This document shows positions 31,544 through 62,553 of a stretch of DNA of 64,000 nucleotides, piece after piece. The first letter of the stretch is position 1, and every line of letters begins with the position of its first letter. Under the pieces are notes generated by a model. That model made no database searches, was not told the origin of the DNA, and saw only the letters and a program-made list of their open reading frames with translations. The DNA is from Candidatus Multivoradales bacterium. GTDB taxonomy: Bacteria > Acidobacteriota > Thermoanaerobaculia > Multivoradales > JAHEKO01. A program made the position numbers and the translations under genes. Location of the stretch: positions 988,299 through 1,052,298 of the forward strand of contig CBDFIJ010000004.1 of NCBI GenBank assembly GCA_965248055.1, read 5' to 3'.

Positions 31544-31748
31544 TCTGGCATGCCCCCCTCAGCGGTCAAGGATATCTCTTGTCGGTCGTCATCGGAACCA
31601 GACCTCAGGAATGCAACCGCGATGGGGTCACAGGCAGGTGGATTGAGATAGATACCGGCCCTCCTCCCTAACCCCCGCCGGGATGACATAGAAGAGGCTT
31701 CTCCGCCGGGATGCCCCGAGGGGAGTCCCGACGATGGTCATACCGGTC

Positions 31749-31890
31749 TGAGGCACTTCAACGTGTCGTTCCACACTGAGACACTTCATCGTGTTGTCCC
31801 ATCCTGAGACACTTAATCGTGTCGTCCCACACTGAGGCACTTCAGCGCGTCATCCCACGCCGTGGAACATCAACGCGTCGTCTCCTTCAG
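31749..31890. repeat. 28-bp imperfect tandem repeat x5 (TGAGRCACTTNANCGTGTYGTCCCAYNC)
   Basis: Aligned by eye. Flanked by partial F1-type elements (..CCTAACCCCCGCCGGGATGAC..) at 31663-31691 and 31995-32025. Confidence 0.7.
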
Positions 31891-32077
31891 TACTTCCTCG
31901 TCATCCTCGTAGGGTGGGGGTTTTGGGGATCGAGGATCTCCAACAGCGTCAGCGACCCACAGCCAGTATCTGGACGGCCACCGAATCCCGTCCCCCCTCC
32001 CTAACCCCCGCCGGGATGACGATGGGTGGAATCTCCTCTGCCTCTTGTTCAGAGGCGGTCCTGCTGTTGTCTGGTGA

Positions 32078-42635: not shown

Positions 42636-42673
42636 ATAGATTGTTCCTCCGCGTCGAGACCTGACAGCGCGCG

Positions 42674-42697
42674 GGAGCCCGCAAGGGGCTCCTACAT
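42674..42697 (+). terminator. GC-rich stem-loop (GGGAGCCCGCAAGGGGCTCC) 40 bp past the stop of the preceding gene
   Basis: 7-bp stem and 6-nt loop seen in the sequence. No U-tract. Confidence 0.3.
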
Positions 42698-42734
42698 TGA
42701 CCTCGCACATCCTGAATTGCCGGAACGCAAGGAG

Positions 42735-43880: not shown

Positions 43881-43892
43881 TGCGAGAACCGA

Positions 43893-46655: not shown

Positions 46656-48569
46656 TTATTCCCGGTGTCGGGCCGCCGCCAAACACAGCTGCGTAGTCAG
46701 CAGATCGAGTGCGTTTAACTCGCACCCTTCATTATGGAGACGCTCTAACGTCGCTGCGATATGCATTGTTTTCTTTGACTTCCGATTGGAGACCCCAAGC
46801 TCAACGGCAACCTCACCCCACGCCCGATCCCAGCAAGAATCGCCGATGTCACCTTTGATAGCCGCCTCTATGTCCCTCGGCCACAGTACGCAGTTGTCAA
46901 GAAACTGAGTAGTACGAGGGTGCTGTTCGTTCTGCTGCTGTCCTAGGACGCCCAGAATGGAATTATTGAGATCATTACTCCTCGTATCGCCCAAGGAATG
47001 CCCTTCTCTATGATCCCCGTCCACCACGGCGTACACAGGAATCCCCAATTGCACCAATATTGCGGCAAAGTCTTGTATCTTGTCCTTTCCACCACATTCA
47101 ACAATGTGTCCACCGTAGCCTCGGAACTCATCCCAACGCCCAAACAGCCTTAGGCTGGTCGCGACATGTGCCACATCCTCCAACCCCTCAACCAATACCA
47201 CAAATGATGCAAAGAACATTTCCGCTTGGCTAGGTCGAAGACACTGTTCGACCGCCATCATTTGACTGCTAGGAAGCCTTGGCGCGCCGCCACCGGCCTC
47301 AGCCAAAACTTCACACAACTTTTTGTAGCTTAGTCCGGTAACCAAAGCCTCTTGTCTCTGATTATGCCTTCGAACCAATCGTACTGATTCAAATCCACGA
47401 CCAGACACAAATTGGGGACTATGACTTGTAACAACTATCTGCACGCCCACATCAGTCGCGAGTCGCTCAAGAACAGCGGCAAGATGTCGCGTTTGTGGTG
47501 GATGCTGAAAGAGTTCAGGCTCCTCGAAACCCAAGAGAAGAGTTCTCCCCTTATCGGACCTCGCATCCGCCAACTCTTCAAGCACTGCGGCGACATAAGC
47601 TCGCTGCAGCCCATGCCCCGTTCTTGAAAACGTCCCGACAAATTCATCGTCATCGCCGAGATGTACTTCGGCCTGAGGTCGAGCAACTTGAATCGACCGA
47701 GATGGTTCCGAAGCCCACTGCAGATTCAACGCAACTCTGGAATGGGACCAGGTGCGAAGTCTCTCTCTGAGGGCAGAACGCAGCGCATCAAGATCAACCT
47801 GCCTTCGGTCTATGATCCCCTGATAGTCAGACTCAGTGCGCTTTCGAAGGGCCTCGACCTCTTCATCAAGGGCAGTGTGCCCTTGGAGTGACAGACTTAG
47901 AAGTTCAGCCAGTGCACTATTCCGTGCATCTGTGGATTCATCAGAGGGGTCCTGCATGGCCGGAATCCTGATCCACTGGAGATGCCTTCCTAACTTGCTT
48001 CCTTGTTGCCAGCCGTAGAACTGGTCTCGGCTTTGTATCTCGACGCACTCACCGCGATGCTCTTCTTCATATGTTCGAAGAGCCAACTTCATGTTTGCCT
48101 TCACTCGTTCGTCGGGCAGGTCTGAAAATTCCTCCCGAAGTTTTGAATATATTCCTCTCAAATCGACCGCAGCCCCGCCACTTGAATCAACTTCGAAATA
48201 GGCAGCGAACCTTTCAATCCCGAGTCTTGATCCAAACTGAACAATTAGAGCTTGCTGTTTTTCAACATCCCACTCCGCGACAGCGCTTACCACCAATTCA
48301 CCACTCCGGACGTAATCCTCTAGTTCGGCCAGCGCATCAACCGAGAGACTCGAAAACGTCAGGGTAATCCGAATTGGCGATGATGTATTTCGGCGATGAA
48401 AATCCTCTTCTTCTAACGACCCCCCCTTGCGAAAAAAGACATCCATTGCCTCCAAGACCGTAGATTTTCCTGCACCATTTGGGCCTACAAAGCAGACGTA
48501 TTCATCGAAGTAGATGGTAATATCCTTAAAGCAGCGAAAATTTTCCACGCGGAGCTTAGTTAGCTGCAT
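46656..48569 (-). CDS. OLD-family ATP-dependent endonuclease (ABC-type ATPase + Toprim; GajA/AriAB-like)
   Basis: Walker A VGPNGAGKST near the N-terminus. FEEPELFQHP (Walker B). VVTSHSP. C-terminal Toprim with VLVEGLED and VVDGD. GC content ~48% vs >60% in the flanks. Confidence 0.75.
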   Translation of the reverse strand: MQLTKLRVENFRCFKDITIYFDEYVCFVGPNGAGKSTVLEAMDVFFRKGGSLEEEDFHRRNTSSPIRITLTFSSLSVDALAELEDYVRSGELVVSAVAEWDVEKQQALIVQFGSRLGIERFAAYFEVDSSGGAAVDLRGIYSKLREEFSDLPDERVKANMKLALRTYEEEHRGECVEIQSRDQFYGWQQGSKLGRHLQWIRIPAMQDPSDESTDARNSALAELLSLSLQGHTALDEEVEALRKRTESDYQGIIDRRQVDLDALRSALRERLRTWSHSRVALNLQWASEPSRSIQVARPQAEVHLGDDDEFVGTFSRTGHGLQRAYVAAVLEELADARSDKGRTLLLGFEEPELFQHPPQTRHLAAVLERLATDVGVQIVVTSHSPQFVSGRGFESVRLVRRHNQRQEALVTGLSYKKLCEVLAEAGGGAPRLPSSQMMAVEQCLRPSQAEMFFASFVVLVEGLEDVAHVATSLRLFGRWDEFRGYGGHIVECGGKDKIQDFAAILVQLGIPVYAVVDGDHREGHSLGDTRSNDLNNSILGVLGQQQNEQHPRTTQFLDNCVLWPRDIEAAIKGDIGDSCWDRAWGEVAVELGVSNRKSKKTMHIAATLERLHNEGCELNALDLLTTQLCLAAARHRE

Positions 48570-48627
48570 TGCTGGTCCTCAATTTGTAGCAGAGGCCGTT
48601 TCATTAAAGCACAAAAAAACCAACGCC

Positions 48628-48843
48628 ATGAACAGAACTCCAGTTGACTCATCCAATATAGCCTCTGTTGGGTACGATTCAAAACGTCGGATTCTTGAGG
48701 TCCAGTTCAATAACGGAACAGTCTACGAGTACTATGAAGTACCCTCGACAACTCACAGCAGCTTGATGTCTGCGGGCTCTACTGGTAGCTACTTCAACGC
48801 CAATATTAGGGATCGATTCCGCTTTACTAAGATTCAATCTTAA
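48628..48843 (+). CDS. KTSC-domain protein
   Basis: IASVGYDSKRRILEVQFNNGTVYEYYEVP.. matches the KTSC (lysyl-tRNA synthetase C-terminal-like) domain. Start moved to ATG 48628. Confidence 0.55.
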   Translation: MNRTPVDSSNIASVGYDSKRRILEVQFNNGTVYEYYEVPSTTHSSLMSAGSTGSYFNANIRDRFRFTKIQS

Positions 48844-48911
48844 GCGTACAGCGCAGCTGGCTGCATAAGAATTGGGCACAGATCTAAAGTATCCTCAGTA
48901 AAGAAGGGCAC

Positions 48912-49360
48912 ATTTTGATCGACGCGCCGATGGAGGAGAACCCTATCTGCCAACTGTCTCAAAGTTGTTGACAGGTTCCGAGAACGCGGCACAGATCCTC
49001 GCCAATGTCGCAGCCCTGGGATTTCGCGTCGAGGACATCGAGATCTTGTTGGCATCGCACGCCCATTTCGACCACACCGGGGGCATGGCGGAGGTCAAGG
49101 AACGAACGGGAGCCCATATTTCAGGAGGGCAGTTTTCGGAAGCCCCGTTTTCGAAAGCACTGCTGTGGCTGAGCGCGGCGGGCGCGGAGCTTGGCAGCAC
49201 GGGAGGCAAGGGGAATTTTCACTTCGGCGATGCGCTTGCCTACCCTGCGGTCGCTGCCGACCACATCCTGGAGCACAGCGCCCCTACAGAAGAGCCCACG
49301 GTTGAGCTCGGTGGACACTCGCTGACCGCGCTGCTAACCCCAGAACATATTGCTCATTAG
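48912..49360 (+). pseudogene. metallo-beta-lactamase (B3-like) gene fragment, frameshifted and truncated
   Basis: ILIDAP in one frame. The next frame holds AAQILANVAALGF...LLASHAHFDHTGG...HFGDALAYP...GHSLTALLTPEH, then a premature stop at about half the normal MBL length. Confidence 0.5.
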
Positions 49361-49477
49361 ATATTGGGGGCTGCACCAGTTGGACGTTCGAGGTCATGGA
49401 CGGTGACCGAAAGCTCAAGGCGCTCATCGCCTGTAGTCTCACTGCCCTACCTCTCGATCGAGGCAGGAGGTCGCCTT

Positions 49478-49524
49478 GTTCGTGAAGATTGTAAGTTGAA
49501 TTGACAATTTTCACGAACAATCCT
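49478..49524. promoter_or_regulatory. 11-bp-arm inverted repeat (TTGTTCGTGAA-N24-TTCACGAACAA) upstream of the AAA ATPase gene
   Basis: Perfect arms seen in the sequence. Contains TTGACA. Confidence 0.35.
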
Positions 49525-49535
49525 AGGATCCTCTC

Positions 49536-50726
49536 GTGCCTATTCGTCGCGATGTTGCCTCCCACATATCTGCATTATGTGAGTCCTTCCCGGTGGTCAC
49601 CATTACCGGTCCCCGTCAGTCGGGCAAGACAACTCTTTGCCGGGATCTTTTTCCAGACAAACCGTATCTCTCTCTGGAATCGCTCGATCAACGCGAGTAC
49701 GCGTCAGGCGATCCACGTGCCTTTCTTGATGAATACCGCGAAGGTGCAGTGATCGACGAGGTGCAGCGAGTCCCCGACTTGCTCTCGTACCTACAGACTG
49801 AGGTCGACCAAGACCCGAGGGCTGGGCGGTTCATCCTCACCGGTTCTGCGAATCTCGCCCTTTTGCAGTCGGTTTCACAATCACTCGCAGGCCGCACTGG
49901 GCTGGTCACATTGCTACCCTGCACGCGTCGAGAAATAGAGCGCTTTCCCGACTACCCCCCAGTCTCTTGGAAGCAGGACCTTTGGGAGCACATTTGGCGC
50001 GGTGGCTTTCCTGCAATTCCAGACCGCGGTATCGCCCCTGCAGACTGGTTTGAGGCCTACGTTGCAACCTACGTCGAACGCGATGTCCGCCAAATCACCA
50101 ATGTCACCGATCTGTCGGCATTCCAAACCTTCCTGGGATTGATTGCTGGACGCACCGGGCAGTTGCTCAATCTTTCGCAGGTGGGCAACGACGCGGGCAT
50201 AACCCACAACACCGCAAAGTCCTGGCTCTCGGTACTGGAAACGGGGTACCTCGCTTTCCGGCTGCGTCCGTTTCACGCCAACCTGCGCAAGCGTTTGGTC
50301 AAGTCTCCGAAGACCTATTTCTACGACACTGGGTTGGCCTGCTTTCTGATCGGCATTCGCTCACCCGATCAGTTGGCGACACACCCGCTGCGGGGAGCTC
50401 TGTTCGAGAACTACGTTGTCTGCGAGATACTGAAGTCGATCCTGAACAAGGGTCGACGTCCCCGGCTCTCTTTCTACCGCGACCACTACGGACACGAAGT
50501 CGATCTGTTGGTGGAGCGAGAGACCGACATCACCGCTGTTGAGATCAAATCGGGCGGTACGATTGCCAGCGACTTCTTCAAGGACTTGAAATGGTTGCGC
50601 GAGCAGGGCAAGGGAACTCTCAATGCGACCATGAATCCGATGTTGGTATACGGAGGAAGAGAAGCACAAGAGCGCAGCCACGCCAAGGTTGTCCCGTGGC
50701 CCGATATCGAAGATTTCAATTGGTAG
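49536..50726 (+). CDS. AAA-superfamily ATPase with DUF4143 C-terminal domain
   Basis: VVTITGPRQSGKTTL (Walker A), DEVQRVPDL (Walker B) and a C-terminal DUF4143-like region. A common stand-alone ATP-binding protein family. Confidence 0.75.
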   Translation: MPIRRDVASHISALCESFPVVTITGPRQSGKTTLCRDLFPDKPYLSLESLDQREYASGDPRAFLDEYREGAVIDEVQRVPDLLSYLQTEVDQDPRAGRFILTGSANLALLQSVSQSLAGRTGLVTLLPCTRREIERFPDYPPVSWKQDLWEHIWRGGFPAIPDRGIAPADWFEAYVATYVERDVRQITNVTDLSAFQTFLGLIAGRTGQLLNLSQVGNDAGITHNTAKSWLSVLETGYLAFRLRPFHANLRKRLVKSPKTYFYDTGLACFLIGIRSPDQLATHPLRGALFENYVVCEILKSILNKGRRPRLSFYRDHYGHEVDLLVERETDITAVEIKSGGTIASDFFKDLKWLREQGKGTLNATMNPMLVYGGREAQERSHAKVVPWPDIEDFNW

Positions 50727-50753
50727 TAAGTTCTTATTCGGAGGATCGATCAC

Positions 50754-51644
50754 ATGCAGCACGAGAGCATCGGAAACACCGCATTCTCGGCCTCATCCGT
50801 CTCCTACGGCGCCTGGCCGCTTTCCGACCCGTCCCCTCGCCCCACCGAAGCGGAGGCTATTCAGGTGGTCCACGCCGCGTTGGATGGTGGAGCGACGCTG
50901 ATCGATACCGCGGATGCTTACTGCCTGGAGCAGAGCGAGGTGGGGCACAACGAGCGGTTAGTGGCCAAGGCGCTGAAGGCCTGGTCGGGGCCGCAATCTG
51001 GAGCCAAGCATGAGATCACGGTGGCAACCAAGGGCGGGTTCGTCCGGCCCGGCGGTCAGTGGGTGTCGAAGGCCGATCCAGAGCACTTACGCTCCGCTTG
51101 TGAGCATTCGCTGCGATGTCTCAACACCGACTGCATCGACCTGTATCAACTCCATGCCCCAGATCCCAAAGTGCCGCTGGAGGACAGCGTTGGAACGCTG
51201 GCCGCTCTGCAGCAGGAAGGCAAGATTGACAAGATCGGGCTTTCCAATGTCTCGGTGGCAGAGATCGAGATCGCCCGATCGATCGTTGAGATCGTCAGCG
51301 TGCAGAGCCGACTCAATCCGTTCTTCCGTGAGGCGCTGCGCGACGGCGTAGTCGATCATTGCGACCAGAATGGTCTGGTGTTCTTCGCCTACAGCCCGCT
51401 GGGCGGTGGCCGGCTCAACCGCAAGTTGCCCGAGATTCCCGAACTGCAGGCGATCGCCGAGAGCCACGGTGCCTCCAACCATGCGGTGGTCTTGGCCTGG
51501 GTGCTGGCGCAAGGGTCCAACGTGGTGGCGATCCCGGCTGCGCGTAGGATTGCACACGTGCTCGATAGCCAGTCGGCTGCCTCAATCGAACTCAGCGCCG
51601 AAGAACTGGCCTTGATCGACGCGGCGACCTTCTCCATCGCTTAG
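50754..51644 (+). CDS. aldo/keto reductase
   Basis: LIDTADAY (Asp/Tyr of the catalytic tetrad), AKR-type (beta/alpha)8 barrel throughout. Confidence 0.85.
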   Translation: MQHESIGNTAFSASSVSYGAWPLSDPSPRPTEAEAIQVVHAALDGGATLIDTADAYCLEQSEVGHNERLVAKALKAWSGPQSGAKHEITVATKGGFVRPGGQWVSKADPEHLRSACEHSLRCLNTDCIDLYQLHAPDPKVPLEDSVGTLAALQQEGKIDKIGLSNVSVAEIEIARSIVEIVSVQSRLNPFFREALRDGVVDHCDQNGLVFFAYSPLGGGRLNRKLPEIPELQAIAESHGASNHAVVLAWVLAQGSNVVAIPAARRIAHVLDSQSAASIELSAEELALIDAATFSIA

Positions 51645-51650
51645 GACAGC

Positions 51651-52406
51651 GTGCCAACCTTCGCCCTTTTGTGTCTTCTGCGCCTCTTGGCGGTCGGGGC
51701 GGAAGACGACAATCGCCCTGCTGTCCCGGAGCTTCTGTACGGCAGCCAGACGCAATACCCGATCTGGGTTTCGCTGGATGCGATCAACCAGAACGGTGTC
51801 GACCCGAACTATCCGCACAATGAGGTGGTGTGGGACAACCGCCCCATCGCACTCATGCCCTCCGCCGAATGCGACGAAACGACCATGATCTACGATCATT
51901 TCGGATGGATCGAGCGCCGCCCGGAGAGTGTTGAAGAGCTGTTGACAAACGAGCAGCCGATACTCCGTTTTGAAATCGTGCATTCGACTCCTGGCTTCTA
52001 TACCGGCATGCCGGCGTTCATGCTCCAATTGCGGACCGAGTGGATGAGCGAATCCGCGTTCCGAAAGTACGGCTGGCGGTCGTACTTCAATGCTGCATTG
52101 TTGGAAGGTTCATTCAGACAAGGGGATCAGTACCAATGCTGGAATCAATTAGGTGATGGAGAGCTTGCTCTCCAATCTCTCACTGTTGGATCAGACGTCC
52201 TGTACTTGCCATTGCACGAAGCATACGGTCACGAGGCTTTGGAGTTCGTATATGCGGAAGAAATCTTCGCGCGAGGCCAGGACGGCACCGAGTTGATCCC
52301 CGACGAGCTGAGCAAATCCAGCCCATCACCTTTGTCTTTTGAAGTGATTGAGAAGGTGGTCCGCAGTAGCTTACGCCAAGTGGTACAGCCGGAAGACTTC
52401 GACTAG
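51651..52406 (+). CDS. hypothetical protein
   Basis: 251-aa ORF. GTG start 7 bp after the AKR stop. Lower GC. No known motif recognised. Confidence 0.35.
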   Translation: MPTFALLCLLRLLAVGAEDDNRPAVPELLYGSQTQYPIWVSLDAINQNGVDPNYPHNEVVWDNRPIALMPSAECDETTMIYDHFGWIERRPESVEELLTNEQPILRFEIVHSTPGFYTGMPAFMLQLRTEWMSESAFRKYGWRSYFNAALLEGSFRQGDQYQCWNQLGDGELALQSLTVGSDVLYLPLHEAYGHEALEFVYAEEIFARGQDGTELIPDELSKSSPSPLSFEVIEKVVRSSLRQVVQPEDFD

Positions 52407-52469
52407 AAACGCTCTAAGTACCCGCTCGTTCGCCGCAGACGGCGTGCGAGAACAGGCCGACTCAGGTGG

Positions 52470-53095
52470 GCCGGTCGATACAGATTCCCGCCCCTCGCTC
52501 CCCACCCGCTGGAATGACGGGCTGCTACTACCTTTTACCCCACCCGCGTCAGAATGGGAGGGGGCAACCCCCTCGATCCAACTCAGCGCCGAAGAACTGG
52601 CCTTGATCGAAGCCGCGACCTTCTCCATCGCCTAGCTATCAACGTATTCAAAACGACACACCCCCAACTCGTCATCCCGGCGGGGAAAGGATTGGGGGGC
52701 CGGGATCTACACATCTCAGCTGCGGAATCTGCACGCCCACCTTGGCAAAGATTCCCGCCCCACGCTCCCCTCCCGCGGGAATGACCGCCTGCTTTGCAGG
52801 GGCGGGTTTTACCCGCCCGCGTCAGAACGGGCGGGGACAAACCTCCCCCCTACTTCTCCATCGCCTAGCTATCTCCGCGCGCCCTTATGACCTACCCAAA
52901 CTCGTCATCCCGGCGGGGGAAGGATTGGGGGGCCGGGATCTACGCATCCCAGCTGCGGAATCTGCACGCCCACCTTGGCAAAGATTCCCCCCCACGCTCC
53001 CCGCCCGCGGGAATGACGGGCTGCTTTGTAGGGTCGGGCTTTACGCCCGCCCGCGTCGGAAGGGAGGGGATAAACCCCTCCCCTACACCTAGCTG
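52470..53095. repeat. tandem array D: ~240-bp module x~2.6, each carrying a divergent F1 palindromic element, a GGGAGGGG-N4-CCCCTCCC hairpin and a copy of the last ~60 bp of the AKR gene
   Basis: 52650-52890 vs 52890-53095 ~90% identical. Tail ..SAEELALIEAATFSIA* at 52577-52635 duplicates the AKR C-terminus (51585-51644). Confidence 0.7.
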
Positions 53096-53140
53096 GCGTA
53101 TGCGTACGAAGCGCGGCCCGAGCACTGCTACCATCACCGC

Positions 53141-55078
53141 ATGATGTATCGCCGTCTTCTATTTGCTGCCGTTGGATCGGCCTTAGCTTTCGTCGCCACA
53201 GCCCTCGCTGCGCCCACCGACAAACCGGTACTCCACGCCCAGCATTGGCTGGCGATCACCGGTAAGCCTTTGGGAGCCAGCGCCGGAGCACAGATATTCA
53301 CTCAAGGCGGCAACGCGGTGGACTCGGCTTGCGCGATGCTGGCTGCGACTTCCACCATGTGGGACACGTTGGGTTGGGGCGGGGAAACGCAGGCGTTGAT
53401 CTATCACCCAGGCGAGAAACGGGTGATCGGCATCAATGGACTAGGGGTCGCTCCCAGCGGCGCCACGGTCGAGTTTTTCCGCGAACAAGGATTACTCTAC
53501 CCACCTGAATTCGGTCCGCAAGCAGCGGTGACCCCAGGAACGCCGGGCGCGCTGATGACCATGCTGGCCGAGTACGGAACGATGTCGTTAGCCGAAGTGC
53601 TGGCCCCGGCGATGCAGATGGCTGAGGGCTATCCAGTTGAGGCGCAGCAGGCCAACAACATGGAGCGTCGGCGCGAGATTCTCGTCCAGTGGCCGAGTTC
53701 GAAAGAGGTTTTCCTACCCCACTGGGATACCTGCGCTGCGGCGAGCGAGGACGGAGTCCCTTCCGAAGACTGCCGTGTAGCCCCCTACCCAGGGGAGATC
53801 TTGCGCCAACCGGACCTGCACCGCACCTTAGCCAAACTGGTGGAGACCGAAGTCGAGGCTTTGGCTGCAGGCAAGTCGCGCAGCGAAGCAATCTACGCCG
53901 CCTATGACCGTTTCTATCGTGGAGACGTCGCGGAAGACTTGGTTGCCGCTACCCGCGAAGCGGGAGGACTGTTCACCGTCGAAGATCTGGACAACTGGCA
54001 GGTATATATCGAGGAGCCGGTGTCGGCGGACTACCGAGGCATTGAGGTCTACAAATTGACCCATTGGGTGCAAGGGCCGGTGATGCTGCAAGCTTTGAAC
54101 ATGCTCAAGAAACTCGACCTAGAGCCGATGGGCTACAACTCCGCGCTCTACATCCACTTGGTCAATCAGGTGATGAACCTGGCCTTCGCCGATCGAGATT
54201 TCTACTACGGCGACCCATATTTTCCGCCCGAGGAACCGATTGAAGGTCTGCTGTCGGATGACTATGCCGCTCACCGCTTGCTCCAGATCGACTGGAAGCA
54301 GAATGACGCGGACGCCAAGCCCGGTAATCCCTACCCGTTTCAGAACGGTGAGAATCCGTTCAGCGACCTCCTAGAGTCTTGGAGCAATATCCCGGCCACC
54401 GTGGACGCAGAAGGAAAGGAGAGCTGGCAGCAGACCTTGCTTCCTCCGAATGGAGCCACACCCCGCGGTTCGATGACCGCGGACGAGGCGTTCGTCGCCG
54501 GCACCACTTCGATCCAAGCCGCCGACGAGCAAGGATGGGTGGTCTCGATCACCCCGTCCGGCGGTTGGATTCCCGCGTTTATCGCCGGGGATACCGGCAT
54601 CGGCTTATCGCAGCGGATGCAGAGCTTTGTTTTGGACGAACGGCTCAATCCCTACAACTTGTTGGAACCGGGAAAGCGGCCCCGCGCCACCCTCACTCCT
54701 GGCATGGCACTCAAAGACGGCAAGCCGTATCTCTCGTTTGCCGTCCAAGGTGGTGACACCCAGGATCAGAATCTGCTGCAGTGGTTCTTGAACGTGGTTG
54801 AGTTTGGCATGAACGCCCAGCAAGCCGCCGAGGCTGCCAACTTCAACTCCTACCAAATGCAGTCCAGCTTCGGCGCCCACAACGCCGAGCCGGGACGTTT
54901 GGTGGTGCGCGAGGACCTGCCGGTGTGGGTCACCGACAAGCTGAACGAAATGGGCTATTCGGTGGAAAAGAGAGCCAAGACCTCGGGACCGATTACTGCC
55001 ATTGTCTTTGACCATGAAACCGGGACCATGTGGGGAGCGGCGAGTGACTTTGGGGAGGACTATGGGGTCGGGTGGTAA
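53141..55078 (+). CDS. ggt: gamma-glutamyltransferase family protein
   Basis: Signal peptide. GGT-like N-terminal region. Autoprocessing/nucleophile region ..AGTTSIQAADEQGWVVSITPSGG.. Confidence 0.75.
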   Translation: MMYRRLLFAAVGSALAFVATALAAPTDKPVLHAQHWLAITGKPLGASAGAQIFTQGGNAVDSACAMLAATSTMWDTLGWGGETQALIYHPGEKRVIGINGLGVAPSGATVEFFREQGLLYPPEFGPQAAVTPGTPGALMTMLAEYGTMSLAEVLAPAMQMAEGYPVEAQQANNMERRREILVQWPSSKEVFLPHWDTCAAASEDGVPSEDCRVAPYPGEILRQPDLHRTLAKLVETEVEALAAGKSRSEAIYAAYDRFYRGDVAEDLVAATREAGGLFTVEDLDNWQVYIEEPVSADYRGIEVYKLTHWVQGPVMLQALNMLKKLDLEPMGYNSALYIHLVNQVMNLAFADRDFYYGDPYFPPEEPIEGLLSDDYAAHRLLQIDWKQNDADAKPGNPYPFQNGENPFSDLLESWSNIPATVDAEGKESWQQTLLPPNGATPRGSMTADEAFVAGTTSIQAADEQGWVVSITPSGGWIPAFIAGDTGIGLSQRMQSFVLDERLNPYNLLEPGKRPRATLTPGMALKDGKPYLSFAVQGGDTQDQNLLQWFLNVVEFGMNAQQAAEAANFNSYQMQSSFGAHNAEPGRLVVREDLPVWVTDKLNEMGYSVEKRAKTSGPITAIVFDHETGTMWGAASDFGEDYGVGW

Positions 55079-55336
55079 GAATGACGAGCACGGGCCATCA
55101 TCAACGCCCCTTGGACGTCGGAGAATACGCGGACAGATCCCGGCTCCCCTCCCCCACCCCCGCCGGGATGACGGAGGCGGCGCTCCCCGAAATGACTCGG
55201 GTTGAGGCGCCCGCCGGAACGACATGAGCATGAGACGGGCTTGCCCTCGGTCGAGGGCGTCATTCCCGCGGGCGGGAGTGCCCGGACCGGAAAGCCGAGG
55301 GCGGGAATCTGGTGGACGATGAATATCCAATAGCTA

Positions 55337-56146
55337 ATGAAGAGACCACCCCAAAGAGATCCGGTGATCAGCGGCGAGACCTCCATCGACCGGCTTCGCG
55401 CCCTCATCGAACATCTGCGCGGACCCGACGGCTGTGCCTGGGACCGAGAACAGACTGTGCAATCGGTGCGCGCCAATCTGCTGGAGGAAGCGCACGAAGT
55501 CGCCGCAGCAATCGACGGCGGTGACAACGACGAACTGCGGGAAGAGCTGGGCGATCTGCTGTTCCAAGTCGCGTTCTTGGCGCGCATGGCTGAGGAAGAA
55601 GGGATCTTCGATTTCGACCAAGTCGCCAATGAAGTAGTCGACAAGATGATCGCCCGGCATCCGCACGTATTCGGCGATGAGGTCGCCGAGACCGCCGCCG
55701 AAGTGCGTAAGCAGTGGGAGCACCGCAAACAGGCAGATCGAGAAGATAAGAGCGGAACCAGATCGGCGCTGGATGGCGTTCCCACCACCCTGCCGGCACT
55801 CACCGGCGCCTATCGCCTGTCACAGAAAGCAGCAGCGCTGGGCTTTGATTGGCCGGACATCGAAGGCGTCCTCGACAAACTCACGGAAGAATGTCGCGAA
55901 CTGGCCGAAGCCGAGACTGCGGATGAAATCGCCGATGAATTTGGTGATGTGCTGTTCAGTTTGGTTAACCTAGCCCGACACCTGGGGCTGGAACCAGAGG
56001 GGGCCCTGGCGGCGGCCAACATTAAGTTCCGCACCCGCTTTGGGAAAATGGAAGAGATAGTCGCCAACGAAGGGGATCGAGTCTCGGATCTAACGTTAGA
56101 TCAGCTTGAGGACCTCTGGCAGAGGGCCAAACAGAGCCTCGATTAA
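55337..56146 (+). CDS. mazG: nucleoside triphosphate pyrophosphohydrolase MazG (tandem MazG domains)
   Basis: EEAHEVAAAIDGGD..EELGDLLFQV and a second copy EECRELAEAE..DEFGDVLFSLVNLARHL. Confidence 0.85.
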   Translation: MKRPPQRDPVISGETSIDRLRALIEHLRGPDGCAWDREQTVQSVRANLLEEAHEVAAAIDGGDNDELREELGDLLFQVAFLARMAEEEGIFDFDQVANEVVDKMIARHPHVFGDEVAETAAEVRKQWEHRKQADREDKSGTRSALDGVPTTLPALTGAYRLSQKAAALGFDWPDIEGVLDKLTEECRELAEAETADEIADEFGDVLFSLVNLARHLGLEPEGALAAANIKFRTRFGKMEEIVANEGDRVSDLTLDQLEDLWQRAKQSLD

Positions 56147-56264
56147 GACTCATGAACGGGAGGGGATGACCCCCTCCCCTGCCTTAAGAAAATAGTTTGT
56201 GGAGATAAACGGATCGCCTTTGCGTGTTTCTCGTAGGGAGAGGGCCGCGATCGCCTCCGACTCA

Positions 56265-57060
56265 CTCGTCATCCCCGAAGGGCGGGGGTTTGGCGGTCAG
56301 GGTCTTACAAGCGAAAAGACTACCGACGGATTACGTGACTGGCTGAGATCCCGGCCCCCCGCCCTCACACCCGCCGGGATGACGAGGGCTACCCGCGGCC
56401 GGATGACGAAGGAAGTGCCTGCCGGGATGACAAGGGAAATGTACGCCGAGATGACGGAAGCGGTACCCGCCGGACGACTCATCTGTGTCATCCCCGAAGG
56501 GAGGTGGCTCCGGGGGGCGGGAATCTTTCAAGCGCAGGGTCACCGACGGATTACCTGGTTGGCTGAGATCCCGGCCCCCCGCCCTCACACCCGCCGGGAT
56601 GACGAGGGCTACCCGCGGCCGGATGACGAAGGAAGTGCCTGCCGGGATGACAAGGGAAATGTACGCCGGGATGACGGAAGCGGTACCCGCCGGACGACTC
56701 ATCTGTGTCATCCCCGAAGGGAGGTGGCTCCGGGGGGCGGGAATCTTTCAAGCGAAGGGTCACCGATGGATTACCTGGTTGGCTGAGATCCCGGCCCCCC
56801 GCCCTCACACCCGCCGGGATGACGAGGGGTACCCGCGGCCGGATGACGAAGGAAGTGCCTGCCGGGATGACAAGGGAAATGTACGCCGAGATGACGGAAG
56901 CGGTACCCGCCGGACGACTCATCTGTGTCATCCCCGAAGGGAGGTGGCTCCGGGGGTCGGGGATCTTTCAAGCGAAGGGTCACCGACGGATTACCTGGCT
57001 GAGATCCCGGCCCACCGCCCGCACACCCGCCGGGGTGACGAAGGAAGTGCCTGCTGGAAT
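56265..57060. repeat. tandem array A: ~220-bp unit x~3.7 built on the F1 element (TCGTCATCCCCGAAGGG..GGTCGGGGATC..GATCCCGGCCCCCCGCCCTCACACCCGCCGGGATGACGA) followed by four ~24-bp sub-repeats with a GGATGAC core
   Basis: Unit boundaries 56485/56705/56925 read from the sequence. Units >95% identical. Open frames on both strands are not in register across units (220 is not a multiple of 3). Confidence 0.8.
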
Positions 57061-57106
57061 GACGGAAGAGGCGCAGGCGCCTGCTTTTCAAGCATCTACT
57101 TATCGA

Positions 57107-57535
57107 CTACGCGAAATGCGCCTGCAGTGCTCCCAGCAATGCCTGATAGATCGGCATGCAAAATTCGTGGGTGTCTGCGTCACTGGCGGTTTGGTAGTTA
57201 CTCTGCCACTCAACGAAGGTCCGCTCTCCGATCGTCACTGGCAAGACTCGGATACTGCCCACGTAGCGGACAATGTTCGCTGCCTCTAGGGGACCAGGGC
57301 CATCGTCGATGGTGTACTGCAGGGTTCGGTATTGGTCGTCGAGCCCGATCAAGGTCTCGTGGAACACGCCATTTAAAACCCGTTTGGCGCCAATTTGATC
57401 GGCGGCGGCTCCGCCGGTCGGCTCGTTACTCTCCAAGACTCCCGCTGCCCAATCGGTATTGTGAAAATTCCGTAGCGCAGCCCAGACATCGTCGACCGAA
57501 GCGTTGACTACACAACTGTTGTAACAGTGACCCAT
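57107..57535 (-). CDS. SRPBCC (START/Bet v1-like, polyketide-cyclase-type) domain protein
   Basis: 142 aa. ..VDDVWAALRNFHNTDW.. pattern of SRPBCC ligand-binding proteins. Sits between two repeat arrays. Confidence 0.55.
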   Translation of the reverse strand: MGHCYNSCVVNASVDDVWAALRNFHNTDWAAGVLESNEPTGGAAADQIGAKRVLNGVFHETLIGLDDQYRTLQYTIDDGPGPLEAANIVRYVGSIRVLPVTIGERTFVEWQSNYQTASDADTHEFCMPIYQALLGALQAHFA

Positions 57536-58019
57536 CTTCCCCCCTTCCGCGGTGTCGCGGAGATGTTGTGACCGGAGAGTACCCCGACTTTGATCATGCA
57601 GCCGCCGCTCGTCGGCGACCTAGTGAGGGCAATACGGGTTGCTGCGGTGACAAGATTTATGGAATGAGCATGCTGTGAAAAGGGATTAATCCCGCTCCGT
57701 CGTGGCTGCGGAGAAGCACCTGTGGAAAGAGGCTGTGCTTCTCGCCCAACTCGCGAGGTAGACGGCGCATCGAGATCCTTCGACTCCCCTCTAAGACTCG
57801 GGTCGCTGAGGATGACAATAATTAGCGACACCGAAACACCAACCTCTCAATTTTGCCGCCGACCGCGGGGTGGAATGTGTCCGCTTACCCCAGAGAAAGT
57901 GGTTCATCCTTGATCGCTGTAAAACAATTCCCGGTGATCGTGGGAGGGGATAAACCCCTCTCCACATAAGGATTGGTTCACGGTTGACAACGCCGACGAT
58001 CCTCTTGTCGTGGCGGGGC

Positions 58020-58095
58020 CTGGATTCTCGGACCTGACGTTAGATCAACTTGCGGACTCCTGGCAGAGGGCGAAACAGAGCCTCGATCTTGACTG
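58020..58095. repeat. duplicated fragment of the mazG 3' end (last ~70 bp of CDS) fused to the head of array B
   Basis: ..TLDQLADSWQRAKQSLDLDW* at 58030-58097 vs mazG ..TLDQLEDLWQRAKQSLD* at 56095-56146. ~85% nucleotide identity. Confidence 0.7.
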
Positions 58096-58114
58096 GTAAA
58101 CGGGAAGGGATAAC

Positions 58115-59215
58115 TCATCTGTGTCATCCCCGAAGGGCGGGGGTTTGGCGGTCGGGGATCTTATGAGCGAAGGGATCAGCGACCGATTACGTACTGGACT
58201 GAGATCCCGGCCCCCCGCCCTCACACCCGCCGGGATGACGAAAGCGGGCCAGCCGGGATTACGGAGACGGTACCAACGGGAATTACAAAGGTGTGCCCGC
58301 CGGAATGACTCATCTTCGTCATCCCCGAAGGGCGGGGGTTTGGCGGTCGGGGATCTTATGAGCGAAGGGATCAGCGACCGATTACGTACTGGACTGAGAT
58401 CCCGGCCCCCCGCCCTCACACCCGCCGGGATGACGAAGGCGGGCCAGCCGGGATTACGGAGACGGTACCAACGGGGATTACAAAGGTGTGCCCGCCGGAA
58501 TGACTCATCTTCGTCATCCCCGAAGGGCGGGGGTTTGGCGGTCGGGGATCTTATGAGCGAAGGGATCAGCGACCGATTACGTACTGGACTGAGATCCCGG
58601 CCCCCCGCCCTCACACCCGCCGGGATGACGAAGGCGGGCCAGCCGGGATTACGGAGACGGTACCAACGGGGATTACGAAGGTGTGCCCGCCGGAATGACT
58701 CATCTGTGTCATCCCCGTAGGGAGGGGGTTTCGGGGGGTCGGGGATCTTTCAAGCGAAAGGACTACCGACGGATTACGTGACTGACTGAGATCCCGGCCC
58801 CCCGCCCTCACACCCGCCGGGATGACGAAAGCGGGCCAGCCGGGATTACGGAGACGGTACCAACGGGAATTACAAAGGTGTGCCCGCCGGAATGACTCAT
58901 CTTCGTCATCCCCGTAGGGAGGGGGTTTCGGGGGGTCGGGGATCTTTCAAGCGAAAGGACTACCGACGGATTACGTGACTGACTGAGATCCCGGCCCCCC
59001 GCCCTCACACCCGCCGGGATGACGAAGGCGGGCCAGCCGGGATTACGGAGACCGTACCAACGGGGATTACGAAGGTGTGCCCGCCGGGATGACGAAAGCG
59101 GGCCAGCCGGGATTACGGAGACGGTACCAACGGGAATTACAAAGGTGTGCCCGCCGGGATGACGAAGGGTGCGCCGGGGCAAGCTCTCACACCGCCGGGG
59201 TGACAAGCGCCCACC
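58115..59215. repeat. tandem array B: ~198-bp unit x~5.5 built on the F1 element
   Basis: Units begin at about 58115, 58312, 58510, 58707, 58905 and 59077 (partial). Identity is near 98%. The 3' end runs into the start region of the helicase gene. Confidence 0.8.
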
Positions 59216-59235
59216 ACCTGGCAAACAATGGCGCG

Positions 59236-61707
59236 ATGCGTATCGATGCCCAAGCCAGTCGCATCGAAGTTTCGGTCGCGGATCTGATCGAGTCCGGTTC
59301 CAGGGGGAGTCTGGGGTTCGGTCAGCGCGGCGGCTATGAGCGGATGTGGATCGGCCAGGCGATCCACACTCGTTATCAAGAGCAACAGCATAACGACGAC
59401 CCGAGTTATCAAAGCGAGCTCGGGATCAAATCCACGGTTGTCATTCGGGGCTGGGAGGTCACGGTGCGCGGTCGCATCGACGGCCTGCGGCAAGAACCTA
59501 ATGGCACAGCCGTGGTGCAAGAGCTCAAGTCAGTGCGGCGAGACCGACCACCCTCCGAGGCAACCCTGAAGATGTATCGGGAACAGGCGGCAGTCTATGC
59601 CTGGATGCTGTCTCAGGAGCAGGCGCAAGAGCAGGCGGATTCTTCGGAAGAGGAATCCGACGACGCTCCAGAGACTTCAACAACTTCGGCCAAGGTCGAT
59701 GCCGAGCTGGTGCTGATCGAGGTCGCCTCCTATGAGGCTTTGATTGAGCCGCTGGAATTGAACCTTTCCGAGGTCGACACTTGGGTTCGCAAGCGGCTAC
59801 AGCGGATGGTGGGACAAGCGCAGCAAGCACAAGCAGAGAGAGACACTCGGGCCCGTGCCGGCCGCCACTTAGTTTTCCCCCATGACCAGACGCGACCTGG
59901 GCAGCAAGCAATCATCAAAGCCACCGAGCGGGCAATCGAGCAACAAGAGCATTTGTTGATCGAGGCGCCGACCGGGTTGGGTAAAACCGTAGCCGCGCTC
60001 TATCCAGCGGTCAAAGCGGCGTTAGAGGACGATTTAAAGGTTTATGTGCTGACCGCCAAGAATCTGCAGCAAGAAATGGCGCTCAAGGTGATGGAGATGC
60101 TCAACGTAGAGCAGAGCTTCTCCAGTCTGCAGGTACGGGCCAAAGCACGGATGTGCGCCAACGACGAAATCGTCTGTCACGAGGACTACTGCCGTTTTGC
60201 TCGCGATTACTTCGGCAAGCTGCACGCCAGCGGCTTAGTGGATCAATTGGCGGACGGATCGACAGTTCGGCCCGATACGGTGTTTGAGGCAGCCAGTCAG
60301 TTGGAAGTCTGCCCGTTTGAGGTCAGCCTGGAGTTGGCGCGTCGTTGCCATACTGTGATCGGCGACTACAACTATGCCTTTGATCCCTATGTCGCCCTGC
60401 GCGACTTCGGACCGGAAGGCAATCTCGAAAACTCGATTTTGATCATCGACGAGATCCACAATTTGGTGGAACGCGCCCGCGGTTATTGGAGCCCCGAGCT
60501 CTCCAGCAAGTCATTGCGCATAGCGGCGGGATTTGTCGCTGCGCAAGGGTCAACCGGGCCAGCCATAGCCCATCTCATCGGCCAACTTGCTTCGCGTATT
60601 GAGGAAGACGTCGACTTCGCCTTTGAGGACCACCCGCCACAGATCCAAGAAGTCCAAGGGGAGCTAGCCGCCGACGCCTTTGCCCTGCTGCGCCCCGATT
60701 TTGATGACGCTTTCTTGGATCACCTGGAGTCGATGCGGGCTTCTAAGGCAATGACCGCCGATGACCCGATCCGCGATCAGTACTACGGATTTCAGCGTTT
60801 CATGGACACCGCCCGGGAGGCCGATGACCAGACTTTTTCCACCGTGTTTCGCCGGGATGGTGAGGATCGACGCATCCAGATCTTCTGTTTGGACCCGAGC
60901 CGTTTTCTCAAACGCATCTTTGAGCGCAGCCGTGCGATCATCGGGCTCTCGGCCACCCTGTCCCCTCCTGAGTTCTATCGCGACCTACTTGGGCTGGATC
61001 AAGATCGCTGGACATTCGAGAAAGTCGAGAGTCCCTTTCCCGAGGAAAACCGAAGGGTGGTGATCGACGATGAGGTCTCAACCCTGTGGCGTGATCGCCC
61101 TGACAACTACGGATTGATCGCCGAACGCCTGGGAGATTTCGCCTCGGCAGTACCCGGCAATGTACTGGCACTGTTTCCGAGCTATCAGTTTCTGGCTGAA
61201 GTGGCGCCGCGGATGCACCTGGATGGCAAGCGCATCGCAGTCCAAGAACAGGCCAACAGCGCCAAAGATCGTGACCGGCTGCTGGACACCCTGCGAGATG
61301 GCACCGGGAACGTGCTGCTGCTGGCGGTCGCTGGAGGGGTGTTCGCCGAGGGCGTCGACTATCCGGGCGAGATGTTGAAAGCGGTGGCGGTGGTCGGTCC
61401 GGCACTACCGCCGGTATCGCTCGAGCGTGAACTGCTCAAACGCTATTACCAGGAGCAGTTTGAGCGCGGCTTTGAATACTCCTTCGTACTTCCCGGTATG
61501 ACCCGGGTGGTGCAGGCTGCGGGACGATTGATCCGTTCCGACACCGACACTGGGGTGATCGCGCTGTTTGGTCATCGCTTCAAACGCGCCCCGTATCTGG
61601 ATTACCTGCCGGAGGAGTGGTTTGTCGATGGGGACGTTGCAGCCAGCATCGGTACTCCATCGGTGGCCACAGCGAAATTTTTTGCTGGGCTTGAAGTCGA
61701 GGCGTAG
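59236..61707 (+). CDS. PD-(D/E)xK nuclease domain fused to an XPD/DinG/Rad3-family Fe-S helicase
   Basis: N-terminus with GRIDGL ... VVQELKS (motif II/III of RecB-like nucleases). Helicase Walker A EAPTGLGKT. Four-Cys Fe-S module MCANDEIVCHEDYC..C. DEIH box (IIDEIHN). Start set at ATG 59236, downstream of array-derived sequence. Confidence 0.75.
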   Translation: MRIDAQASRIEVSVADLIESGSRGSLGFGQRGGYERMWIGQAIHTRYQEQQHNDDPSYQSELGIKSTVVIRGWEVTVRGRIDGLRQEPNGTAVVQELKSVRRDRPPSEATLKMYREQAAVYAWMLSQEQAQEQADSSEEESDDAPETSTTSAKVDAELVLIEVASYEALIEPLELNLSEVDTWVRKRLQRMVGQAQQAQAERDTRARAGRHLVFPHDQTRPGQQAIIKATERAIEQQEHLLIEAPTGLGKTVAALYPAVKAALEDDLKVYVLTAKNLQQEMALKVMEMLNVEQSFSSLQVRAKARMCANDEIVCHEDYCRFARDYFGKLHASGLVDQLADGSTVRPDTVFEAASQLEVCPFEVSLELARRCHTVIGDYNYAFDPYVALRDFGPEGNLENSILIIDEIHNLVERARGYWSPELSSKSLRIAAGFVAAQGSTGPAIAHLIGQLASRIEEDVDFAFEDHPPQIQEVQGELAADAFALLRPDFDDAFLDHLESMRASKAMTADDPIRDQYYGFQRFMDTAREADDQTFSTVFRRDGEDRRIQIFCLDPSRFLKRIFERSRAIIGLSATLSPPEFYRDLLGLDQDRWTFEKVESPFPEENRRVVIDDEVSTLWRDRPDNYGLIAERLGDFASAVPGNVLALFPSYQFLAEVAPRMHLDGKRIAVQEQANSAKDRDRLLDTLRDGTGNVLLLAVAGGVFAEGVDYPGEMLKAVAVVGPALPPVSLERELLKRYYQEQFERGFEYSFVLPGMTRVVQAAGRLIRSDTDTGVIALFGHRFKRAPYLDYLPEEWFVDGDVAASIGTPSVATAKFFAGLEVEA

Positions 61708-61784
61708 AGACGGCGGGTCGGGTTCTTTTTGTCGCGCCCATCGAACCTTTTGTGCCCGGCGTTTAACAGCCGCGCGCACTGGCG

Positions 61785-62545
61785 CATTGAGATCCTTCGA
61801 CTCCCTTCACTGCGCTCCGGTCGCTCAGGATGACAGGGAAAAGCGGGAGGATGCCCCCCTACAGATGGATCGTTGCTTGTCTTTCACGACTGGTTAGGTG
61901 ACCAATTCGTCATCCCCGAAGGGAGGCCTTCTTGAGGGTCGAGAATCTTTCAAGTGAACGACTCAGCGACGGACTTGCGTACTTGAAGAAGATCCCGGCC
62001 CCCCACCCCCACACCCGCCGGGATGACGAGGGAGGGGGTCGGCGAGAGGACTCATCGATGTCATCCCCGAAGAGAGGGGGTTCTGCGGGTCGGGATCTTT
62101 TTGGCGAACGGATCTCCGACGGATCACGCACTTGGCGGAGATCCCGGCCCCCCGCCCCCCCGGCTCCACATCCCCGTCGCGCCGGGGCAGGCTCTCAGTC
62201 CGCCGGGATGACGAGGGAGGTGCTTTGGGATGGCGAAGGGAGGGCCGGCGAAATGACTCTTCGGTGTCATCCCCGAAGAGAGGGGGTTCTGCGGGTCGGG
62301 ATCTTTTTGGCGAACGGATCTCCGACGGATCACGCACTTGGCGGAGATCCCGGCCCCCCGCCCCCCCGGCTCCACATCCCCGTCGCGCCGGGGCAGGCTC
62401 TCAGTCCGCCGGGATGACGAGGGAGGTGCTTTGGGATGGCGAAGGGAGGGCCGGCGAAATGACTCTTCGGTGTCATCCCCGAAGGGAGGGGGTTTCGGGG
62501 GTCGGGGATCTTTCAAGCGAAGGACTCAGCGACTTACCGCCTCCC
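61785..62545. repeat. F2 element followed by tandem array C (~206-bp units x~3) built on the F1 element
   Basis: F2 at 61785-61845 (CATTGAGATCCTTCGACTC..CGCTCAGGATGAC). F1 units from 61905. Units 62060-62265 and 62265-62470 are nearly identical. Confidence 0.75.
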
Positions 62546-62553
62546 GTCTTCGA

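Follow-up and report, generated by a model that had tools for sequence, protein, structure and literature searches.

The window analysed here, a 64-kb stretch of contig CBDFIJ010000004.1 (positions 988,299 to 1,052,298) from an uncultured member of the Thermoanaerobaculia (Acidobacteriota), contains four intergenic tandem arrays and several single copies of the repeats from which they are built (Table 1). These repeats, among them an element of about 117 bp designated F1, are probably members of the CGTC-tagged superfamily of repetitive extragenic palindromes (REPs). The neighbouring genes code for an aldo/keto reductase (AKR), a 251-aa protein of unknown function (hyp), a gamma-glutamyltranspeptidase (GGT), MazG, an SRPBCC protein, an XPD/DinG-like helicase, and a YegS/DAGK-like kinase. 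Array 1 is placed between the convergent mazG (+) and SRPBCC (-) genes and array 4 between the convergent helicase (+) and YegS/DAGK (-) genes, array 2 ends 32 bp before the helicase gene, the true start of which is at 59236, and arrays 1, 3, and 4 are downstream of co-oriented genes. All copies of the repeats are intergenic, at seven intergenic sites in the window and several more in a related metagenome-assembled genome (MAG; loci of related genomes are numbered with the prefix L).

Array calls were made with Tandem Repeats Finder on the whole window, and tandem arrays are indeed present at the four places where a sequence-only reading of this DNA had reported them, with end motifs far in excess of chance. 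The left-end motif GTCATCCCCGAAGGG (≤2 mismatches) occurs 14 times in the window against 0.29 expected, and the right-end motif CCGCCGGGATGAC, a 13-mer, occurs 44 times against 3.6 expected. The periods are 195 to 233 bp, not the 198 to 240 bp first given, with 1.8 to 5 units per array. A blastn search of the window with the 117-nt F1 core returns 13 full or near-full copies, every one on the + strand, a diverged copy at 31900-32020, and arm-only matches at 31650, 55135, 52671 (-), and 52904 (-).

The basic repeat is a hairpin module of 37 to 40 nt (a stem-loop of 33 to 36 nt without its tag and tail), and not the nested palindrome of about 115 bp that had been put forward as the element. In a census of 42 modules from the window and the related MAG loci, written tag-first, 40 carry an unpaired CGTC (33 modules) or TGTC (7 modules) tag. 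The tag is followed by an 8-bp stem that opens with A-T and T-A pairs (ATCCCSSN/NSSGGGAT; tag-first consensus ATCCNNNN, partner NNNNGGAT), by a loop of 16 to 20 nt that is G-rich on the tag-first strand (as in CGTCATCCCGGCGGGTGTGAGGGCGGGGGGCCGGGATC) and C-rich on the opposite strand, and by a 3-nt tail with the consensus CYY (CCC in 14, CTT in 10, CTC in 10, CTA in 3, and CCA in 1). The stem variants include ATCCCGGC/GCCGGGAT, ATCCCCGC/GCGGGGAT, ATCCCCGA/TCGGGGAT, and ATCCCGGT/ACCGGGAT, and at 52746-52785 and 55257-55308 the stem is exactly ATTCCCGC/GCGGGAAT. The second of these modules has a 31-nt loop and belongs to the cluster between GGT and mazG, in which the tags point inward.

Four versions of the inner stem are present, each with its own complement (CGGC/GCCG, CCGC/GCGG, CCGA/TCGG, and CGGT/ACCG). 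Among 35 unique modules picked by tag and invariant ends only, and thus blind to inner-stem complementarity, the inner stems are fully complementary in 23, compared with 7.1 +/- 2.1 when the stem halves are shuffled, and none of 10,000 shuffles reached 23; the shuffle test disregards common descent, and there are nonetheless at least three independent compensated stem types. The conserved unit is the hairpin of 37 to 40 nt, the 8-bp stem of which co-varies in its inner 4 bp. The loops vary in sequence and retain their length and a G-tract pattern (GGG..GGG..GGGGG; e.g., 58395-58438 [-] and L030 4706-4745), and a canonical G-quadruplex motif, (G3+N1-7)x4, is present on the tag-first strand of 26 of the 42 modules.

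Two of these hairpins, arranged head to head, make up the F1 dimer. Its left arm reads CGTC-ATCCCCGA, a G-rich loop of 18 to 20 nt (18 in the complete element of Table 1), and TCGGGGAT-CTT, its right arm reads G-ATCCCGGC, a 17-nt C-rich loop, and GCCGGGAT-GACG, and the arms are separated by a conserved spacer of 42 to 45 bp (42 nt in the same complete element). The termini are CGTCATCC and GGATGACG; the terminal inverted repeats, described before as perfect over 10 bp, extend over 10 to 12 bp (CTTCGTCATCCC / GGGATGACGAAG) in some units and over 8 to 9 bp in others. Complementarity within an arm (8/8) exceeds that between arms (6/8 in the outer stems), which makes the dimer a heterodimer. As single-stranded DNA (ssDNA), a single arm is predicted to fold into an 8-bp hairpin (-7.7 to -8.8 kcal/mol) and the 125-nt element as a whole into a single hairpin, long and imperfect (-32 kcal/mol, z = -3.7), and by these models either two small hairpins or one long hairpin would be feasible. 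The related MAG also contains compact, spacerless dimers of 73 to 75 bp in which the arms overlap at GGGGATCCCGG.

The units that make up the arrays hold more than dimers. Each F1 unit contains, in addition to what was first described, three or four tandem half-sites of 23 to 24 bp (GCCGGGATGACGAAGG...), which reiterate the tag and the tag-proximal stem arm only and lie in every case on that side of a complete hairpin which bears the tag. Half-site reiteration occurs in two genomes, at 31737-31898 of the window (five tandem copies of 28 bp) and at L038 2948-3016 and L030 4970-5005 of the MAG (34 to 35 bp), and is a family trait that ordinary REP biology leaves unexplained. The array 1 unit is an F1 dimer plus a 103-bp spacer built of four 24-bp half-sites. 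In array 2, core subtypes in the order AAABB are combined with 78-bp spacers of two variants (alpha and beta), and the array tail consists of a 70-bp spacer repeat on its own (59010-59168) followed by terminal half-sites; the 206-bp units of array 4 carry a 36-nt insertion in the right-arm loop. Array 3, at 52.5 to 53.1 kb, had been counted as F1 and is built from a different head-to-head dimer of the same hairpin family, CGTC-ATCCCGGC...GCCGGGAT-CTA, a 42-nt spacer, and G-ATTCCCGC...GCGGGAAT-GAC, with only about 38 nt in common with F1. Besides the dimer, every array 3 unit contains a pair of GTAG-type REPs (e.g., 53028-53086) together with 21 nt from the tail of the AKR gene.

Most REPs fall into a GTAG-tagged or a CGTC-tagged superfamily (Di Nocera, De Gregorio & Rocco 2013, PMC3733652). 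CGTC REPs are palindromic repeats of 20 to 40 bp that have an unpaired tag (CGTC, often TGTC, or CCTC), an 8- to 9-bp stem with an A-T, T-A opening, a loop of 4 to 5 nt, and a 3-nt tail with the consensus CCA; they form four families (CGTC-1 to CGTC-4), occur mainly as head-to-head dimers, often heterodimers, with conserved spacers of 20 to 100 bp, and are without a dedicated transposase (PMC3733652). The window modules share the CGTC/TGTC tag, the 8-bp A-T/T-A stem, the short unpaired tail, and the occurrence in multiple intergenic copies, and also the head-to-head heterodimers with a conserved spacer, the presence of GTAG REPs alongside, and the lack of an associated transposase. The loop of 16 to 20 nt places them in none of the four families. 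Two more differences are the host phylum, as Acidobacteriota are outside the five phyla listed for CGTC repeats, and the heavy clustering here, as clusters are called rare in the superfamily save in Neisseria and Wolbachia.

No flanking direct repeat of ≥3 bp is present at nine dimers, the open reading frames (ORFs) that run through the arrays (a period of 195 bp being 65 codons) have no Pfam match, and Rfam 15 gives no match anywhere in the window at the gathering threshold and, at E ≤ 1 in 52.4 to 62.6 kb, only a spurious miRNA-family match (E = 0.55); a known structured RNA family, which the sequence-only reading had named as the case against its account, is thus not found. The lack of target-site duplications, Rfam families, and Pfam-bearing array ORFs, together with the exclusively intergenic location, fits REPs. 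The tag is CGTC and not GTAG and no REP-associated tyrosine transposase (RAYT) turned up in the window ORF scans, and a REPIN/RAYT system was rejected; a tblastn search of 579 kb with an E. coli YafM sequence, a weak test, likewise gave no RAYT match, and a weak match in L013 is not a transposase. Integron attC sites or CALIN arrays (RYYYAAC...GTTRRRY, cassette ORFs, and IntI) were also rejected, as CGTCATCC and GGATGACG do not match, the spacers of 32 to 103 bp hold no Pfam-bearing ORF, and the window has no integrase, and a CRISPR reading fails on its defining features. A literature search for the raw sequence motifs returned primer coincidences only.

We therefore put the probability that the repeats are REPs of the CGTC-tagged superfamily, with F1 a head-to-head CGTC-REP dimer, at roughly 0.8, and they are best described as a long-loop CGTC-REP family that forms arrays like those of known REP clusters, a new family of a known kind of element in a new phylum. 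Several points weigh against this. The loop is far longer than the 4 to 5 nt of the four described families, and the tail is CYY and not CCA. The motif is rare elsewhere: the pattern GATCCCGG-N14-18-CCGCCGGGATGAC gave multiple matches in just one of 185,579 species genomes. Dispersal is judged from the 64 kb of source sequence and from eight loci of ≥8 kb (one overlapping another) that amount to about 92 kb of one related MAG. No associated transposase or recombinase was identified in the window or the loci, Pfam scans of the window ORFs having revealed neither Y1_Tnp nor any other transposase, and the amplification mechanism is read from sequence patterns only.

The window helicase is 100% identical to a protein encoded on a contig of 3,345,972 bp, and its homologues bear the names Thermoanaerobaculia or Acidobacteriota. 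The one genome with multiple matches is a Ca. Multivoradales MAG (CBDCXF01; Acidobacteriota, Thermoanaerobaculia), with 69% identity to the window in the helicase and 87% in GGT. Hairpin patterns gave 0 matches in two metagenome scans, and one unit compared by blastn with plasmids and phages gave none. Module density is 22 in 64 kb in the window, 4 in 36 kb in the MAG (from loci that were fetched by protein, so that the figure is unbiased toward REPs), and 0 in 35.7 kb in three other relatives. What is new is a CGTC-type family with a G-rich loop of 16 to 20 nt, its presence in Acidobacteriota, the half-site arrays, and a comparative case in which a single dimer has become an array; REP dimers, clusters, and tandem reiteration are known already, and neither a new class of element nor a new mechanism is revealed. 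The CGTC-REP superfamily now reaches into Acidobacteriota (Thermoanaerobaculia) and takes in a form with a long, G-rich loop, which default REP finders would miss because, for example, RepRanger limits loops to 11 nt (PMC12306157).

The nearest structural parallels are the E. coli bacterial interspersed mosaic elements (BIMEs, especially BIME-2), the REP clusters of Pseudomonas and Stenotrophomonas, and the inverted REP doublets known as REPINs. These share inverted REP pairs, conserved linkers, tandem reiteration of the pair, placement between convergent or co-directional genes, absence of target-site duplication, and the ability to fold as two small hairpins or one long one, but they are GTAG-tagged and tied to RAYT (Y1) transposases, whereas here the tag is CGTC and no RAYT is seen. 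BIME-2 periods are shorter than those of the window arrays. REP and BIME copies that are transcribed in 3' untranslated regions (UTRs) can stabilise the mRNA upstream of them, and nucleoid or topology proteins can bind to the clusters; by analogy only, the window arrays might have an mRNA-stabilising or nucleoid-binding role. Roles as contingency loci, insulators, or terminators, put forward earlier, are conjectural. The REP/BIME-type palindrome proposed from sequence is borne out, and the accompanying statement that such arrays are uncommon in bacteria is overstated, the E. coli BIMEs and the arrays of neisserial intergenic mosaic elements (NIMEs; PMC1797815) being structurally alike.

Comparison with relatives reveals how the arrays have grown. 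Single dimers are present at orthologous sites in the MAG, after AKR (L067 5675-5760), after mazG (L067 8745-8815), and before the helicase gene (L063 9912-9984), and arrays 3, 1/2, and 2 are at the sites of these single dimers, so that amplification has occurred in place. The array 4 site is empty in relatives, with helicase and YegS abutting in L065 and no REP in L063, and new insertions therefore occur too. Adjacent units are 98 to 100% identical, closer than the 95 to 98% within-array identity first estimated and with two core subtypes in array 2, and units of different arrays are 77 to 91% identical. The local tandem amplification suggested earlier is upheld both by this identity and by the single dimers of the relative, and the contrast between those dimers and the up to five units here constitutes a dated example of array growth, which supports REP amplification and clustering as linked local processes.

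The nested periods (23/24, 70, and 195 to 220 bp) all start and stop at CCGCCGGGATGAC, as would be expected if direct copies of that 13-mer had undergone slippage or unequal crossing-over with one another. An ancestor probably had single dimers on the downstream side of AKR and of mazG and on the upstream side of the helicase gene, and these dimers were amplified in place in this lineage, with unequal recombination or slippage during replication as the likely mechanism, acting between the numerous direct copies of CCGCCGGGATGAC, the tag-proximal stem arm. Such events would give nested periods of 23 to 24, 70, and 195 to 233 bp, and would sometimes sweep in flanking DNA such as gene 3' ends. 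We infer that this REP family is selfish or neutral and that its local amplification yields recombination-prone intergenic arrays, with a probability of about 0.6 for this mechanism next to that given above for the identity; the arrays would then for the most part be by-products, selfish or neutral, that act as recombination hot spots and, if transcribed, as 3'-UTR hairpins. No enzyme that seeds new copies is known for any CGTC REP.

The arrays also coincide with differences in gene order and with duplicated gene ends (Table 1). The mazG pseudo-copy comprises the last 67 coding nt and 25 downstream nt of mazG, and its position corresponds to that of the mazG end relative to the helicase gene in L064; the AKR pseudo-copy corresponds in position to the AKR end relative to the dimer and GGT in L067, and its last 21 nt recur with 100% identity in the array 3 unit at 52853-52873. 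Both abut arrays and lie 1 to 2 kb downstream of the real gene ends. The gene order of the window is a hybrid of AKR-hyp-MazG (as in L064) and AKR-GGT-MazG (as in L067), and the arrays bracket GGT and SRPBCC, both of which are missing from the syntenic L064. The pseudo-copies look like junctions of segmental duplication or insertion beside the arrays. Gene-end junctions at arrays fit both the literature on flanking DNA swept into REP clusters and the idea that NIMEs are recombination substrates, and their coincidence with the arrays makes the latter useful markers of recombination hot spots when such MAGs are compared or assembled.

These junctions bear on a different account, in which the arrays are a recombination platform like that of the NIMEs, a dedicated enzyme (a site-specific recombinase or an HUH nuclease) binding or cleaving the hairpins and the arrays both arising from and promoting the capture and exchange of flanking genes with exogenous DNA; we consider it unlikely. 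In NIME arrays, which are long and dynamic, dRS3 elements flank RS segments of 50 to 150 bp, and the arrays were described as Neisseria-specific and proposed to promote recombination with exogenous DNA (Bentley et al. 2007, PMC1797815), the same role as in this account. Neisseria dRS3, a 20-bp inverted repeat (ATTCCC-N8-GGGAAT), is classed as CGTC-1 (PMC3733652). The likeness is considerable (Parkhill 2000; PMC1797815): the window stems read ATCCC../..GGGAT, some of them being exactly ATTCCCGC/GCGGGAAT, hairpins are organized in long intergenic arrays with repeat segments of 50 to 150 bp between them, array length varies among related genomes, and the arrays flank genes that vary too. The account would also accommodate GGT and SRPBCC, bracketed by arrays and missing at L064, the hybrid gene order with the 65- to 92-bp AKR and mazG 3'-end pseudo-copies at array edges, and the half-sites beside full modules in two genomes, which resemble footprints of repeated cleavage or joining.

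However, NIMEs are mosaics of many RS families and the arrays here consist of a single unit at 93 to 100% identity, near-identical and not mosaic within an array; dRS3 has an 8-nt centre compared with 21 to 25 nt between the hexamer termini here; and a phage-encoded recombinase that targets dRS3 is known in Neisseria, whereas no recombinase, transposase, or phage gene was found near the arrays. The GGT, at 87% identity to its MAG ortholog, looks vertically inherited, and ordinary tandem duplication and deletion can account for the duplications. The window arrays are thus analogous to NIMEs in architecture and lie outside that class. A fuller Acidobacteriota counterpart of the NIME, in which an enzyme acting at the CGTC tag would build the arrays and insert or swap the bracketed genes (GGT, SRPBCC, and the AKR-hyp junction), leaving half-sites as its footprints and duplicated gene 3' ends behind, is unlikely; the G-tract loops could then be part of the recognition structure. 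Were it true, NIME-type arrays would not be Neisseria-specific, and there would be a clue to the enzyme, so far missing, that mobilises CGTC REPs.

That the units are instead tandem small RNA genes or 3'-UTR modules, with C-rich loops (CCC..CCC..CCC) serving, for example, in anti-Shine-Dalgarno pairing or protein binding, is improbable. REPs in general are often transcribed (PMC3733652), the downstream position of arrays 1, 3, and 4 would suit such a role, and the stems co-vary with retention of loop length and C-tract pattern. However, the modules are inverted pairs, so that any transcript would have one G-loop and one C-loop arm, the loop sequences are unconserved, there is no Rfam family, and the RNA fold of the full unit is unexceptional (z = -1.6 and -2.2). 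A promoter and terminator scan gave fewer matches than in shuffled sequence and no U-tract terminators, and thus no excess of either signal.

A reading of the 117-bp element as a cut-and-paste MITE (a miniature transposable element with inverted repeats), that is, a nonautonomous derivative of an insertion sequence, had been offered alongside the REP reading and is abandoned here as very improbable. The 8- to 12-bp terminal inverted repeats are of the kind expected, and the site of array 4, empty in L065 and L063, indicates that fresh insertions happen; but the nine dimers are without target-site duplications, each arm is an autonomous hairpin that is also found singly, the compact 73-bp dimers are without internal sequence, and no related or partner transposase was found in the window or loci. 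Inflation or collapse of unit number by the assembler is less probable still, since, although tandem repeats are a known weak point of assembly and the 2.6-kb short-read helicase contig of a relative (L066) breaks right at the gene ends, with nothing more direct in favour, the arrays are merely 0.6 to 1.1 kb long with ordered internal variants (AAABB cores and alpha/beta spacers), the 3.35-Mb source contig implies long reads across them, and half-site reiteration and dimers are present in an independent MAG.

Table 1. Repeat features, gene orders, and other neighbourhood features of the window and of loci in related genomes (positions without a locus number are those of the window)
Feature	Position	Strand	Description
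Array 1, full extent	56267..57063	+	Three full 219-220-bp units and one truncated unit
Array 1, Tandem Repeats Finder	56268-57041		Period 220 bp; 3.5 copies; 93% matches
Array 2, full extent	58122..59204	+	Five units of 195-197 bp
Array 2, Tandem Repeats Finder	58113-59093		Period 195 bp; 5.0 copies; 95% matches
Array 3, full extent	52482..53086	+	Period 233 bp; first unit partial
Array 3, Tandem Repeats Finder	52662-53086		Period 233 bp; 1.8 copies; 90% matches
Array 4, full extent	61908..62533	+	One 151-bp unit, two identical 206-bp units, and one truncated unit
Array 4, Tandem Repeats Finder	62020-62513		Period 206 bp; 2.4 copies; 95% matches
One complete F1 element	58317..58435	+	Head-to-head dimer (tags outside) of two CGTC-tagged hairpins; from sequence, census, and ssDNA folds
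GGT-mazG cluster	55133..55308	+	Two modules, at 55133-55172 (C-loop) and 55257-55308, and two degenerate half-sites
Site upstream of acyl-CoA dehydrogenase	31650..32021	+	Degenerate module (31650-31687), half-sites, and diverged F1-like dimer (31899-32021)
Compact head-to-head dimers	L030 4898-4970; L044 3736-3808; L013 7106-7180; L063 9912-9984; L067 8745-8815		
mazG 3'-end pseudo-copy	58023..58114	+	83% identity to 56079-56170; immediately precedes array 2
AKR 3'-end pseudo-copy	52571..52635	+	92% identity to 51580-51644; immediately precedes array 3
Gene order, window, first part			AKR-hyp-(partial unit)-psiAKR 3' end-(array 3)-GGT-(cluster)-MazG-(array 1)
Gene order, window, after array 1			SRPBCC(-)-psi-mazG 3' end-(array 2)-helicase-(array 4)-YegS(-)
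Gene order, MAG	L067		AKR-(head-to-head dimer)-GGT-MazG-(compact head-to-head dimer)
Helicase locus, MAG	L063		Single compact dimer, 17 bp before helicase
Gene order, relative	L064		AKR-hyp-MazG-helicase with short spacers and without a CGTC module
GTAG-type REP hairpin	56158..56180	+	GGGAGGGGATGACCCCCTCCCC; type GTAGGGGAGGGGTTTATCCCCTCCC; other copies at 53062-53086 and 57942-57963
Third family, TGTC-tagged REP	57764..57817	-	TGTC-ATCCTCAG...CGAAGGAT-CTC
Runs of 6-8-bp units in relatives	L064 9940-9985; L065 360-400; L066 1-45; L012 4990-5035; L067 5770-5850		
OLD-family nuclease	46656-48569	-	AAA_15 and OLD TOPRIM
DUF4143/AAA_14 ATPase	49536-50726	+	
Bacterial microcompartment-type cluster	32715-37611	-	BMC shell protein, aldehyde dehydrogenase, DeoC/LacD aldolase, and RpiB-type isomerase

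Other REP families are present in the window. The GTAG-type motif also occurs in the related MAG loci, and a third family, with the pattern TGTC-ATCCTGAG...AGGAT, has related copies at 61781-61835, 42751-42795, 43294-43340, 43485-43531, and 43713-43771. Between a DUF6503 gene and the MerR/DnaK genes there is an intergenic mosaic array of about 1.25 kb (42640-43900) composed of TGTC-tagged ATCCTGAGCGA...TCGAAGGAT hairpins in both orientations and GTAG-type hairpins, with a 136-bp tandem unit inside it (42951-43249; 2.2 copies, 89%); being mosaic, it looks more NIME-like than the F1 arrays. Runs of 6- to 8-bp units (of the CACTCAC, CCACTGG, or GTCACNN type) are present in relatives just upstream of genes and beside REPs, including directly upstream of the helicase start, the position of array 2 in the window.

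Just past array 1, a small GC hairpin (AGGCGC-AG-GCGCCT, followed by GCTTTTC) at 57069-57090 (+) may serve as a weak terminator where mazG transcription continues through the array, although it is below the T-run threshold of the scan. The XPD/DinG-family helicase gene is flanked by two arrays, and the orthologous helicase loci in relatives are without arrays, so no functional link is suggested. Gene orientation and GC skew change sign at about 48000-54000, with a minimum of the cumulative skew near 52 to 54 kb; a replication origin near 52 kb was considered and rejected, DnaA boxes not being enriched (5 found and 6.3 expected). The stretch from 46656 to 50726 is low in GC (52.6 to 53.7%, compared with about 59%) and looks like an inserted island, because DnaK and AKR adjoin in the syntenic L064; it is possibly defence related. 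A DUF4143 gene is also present near AKR in the MAG (L067 34-1227).

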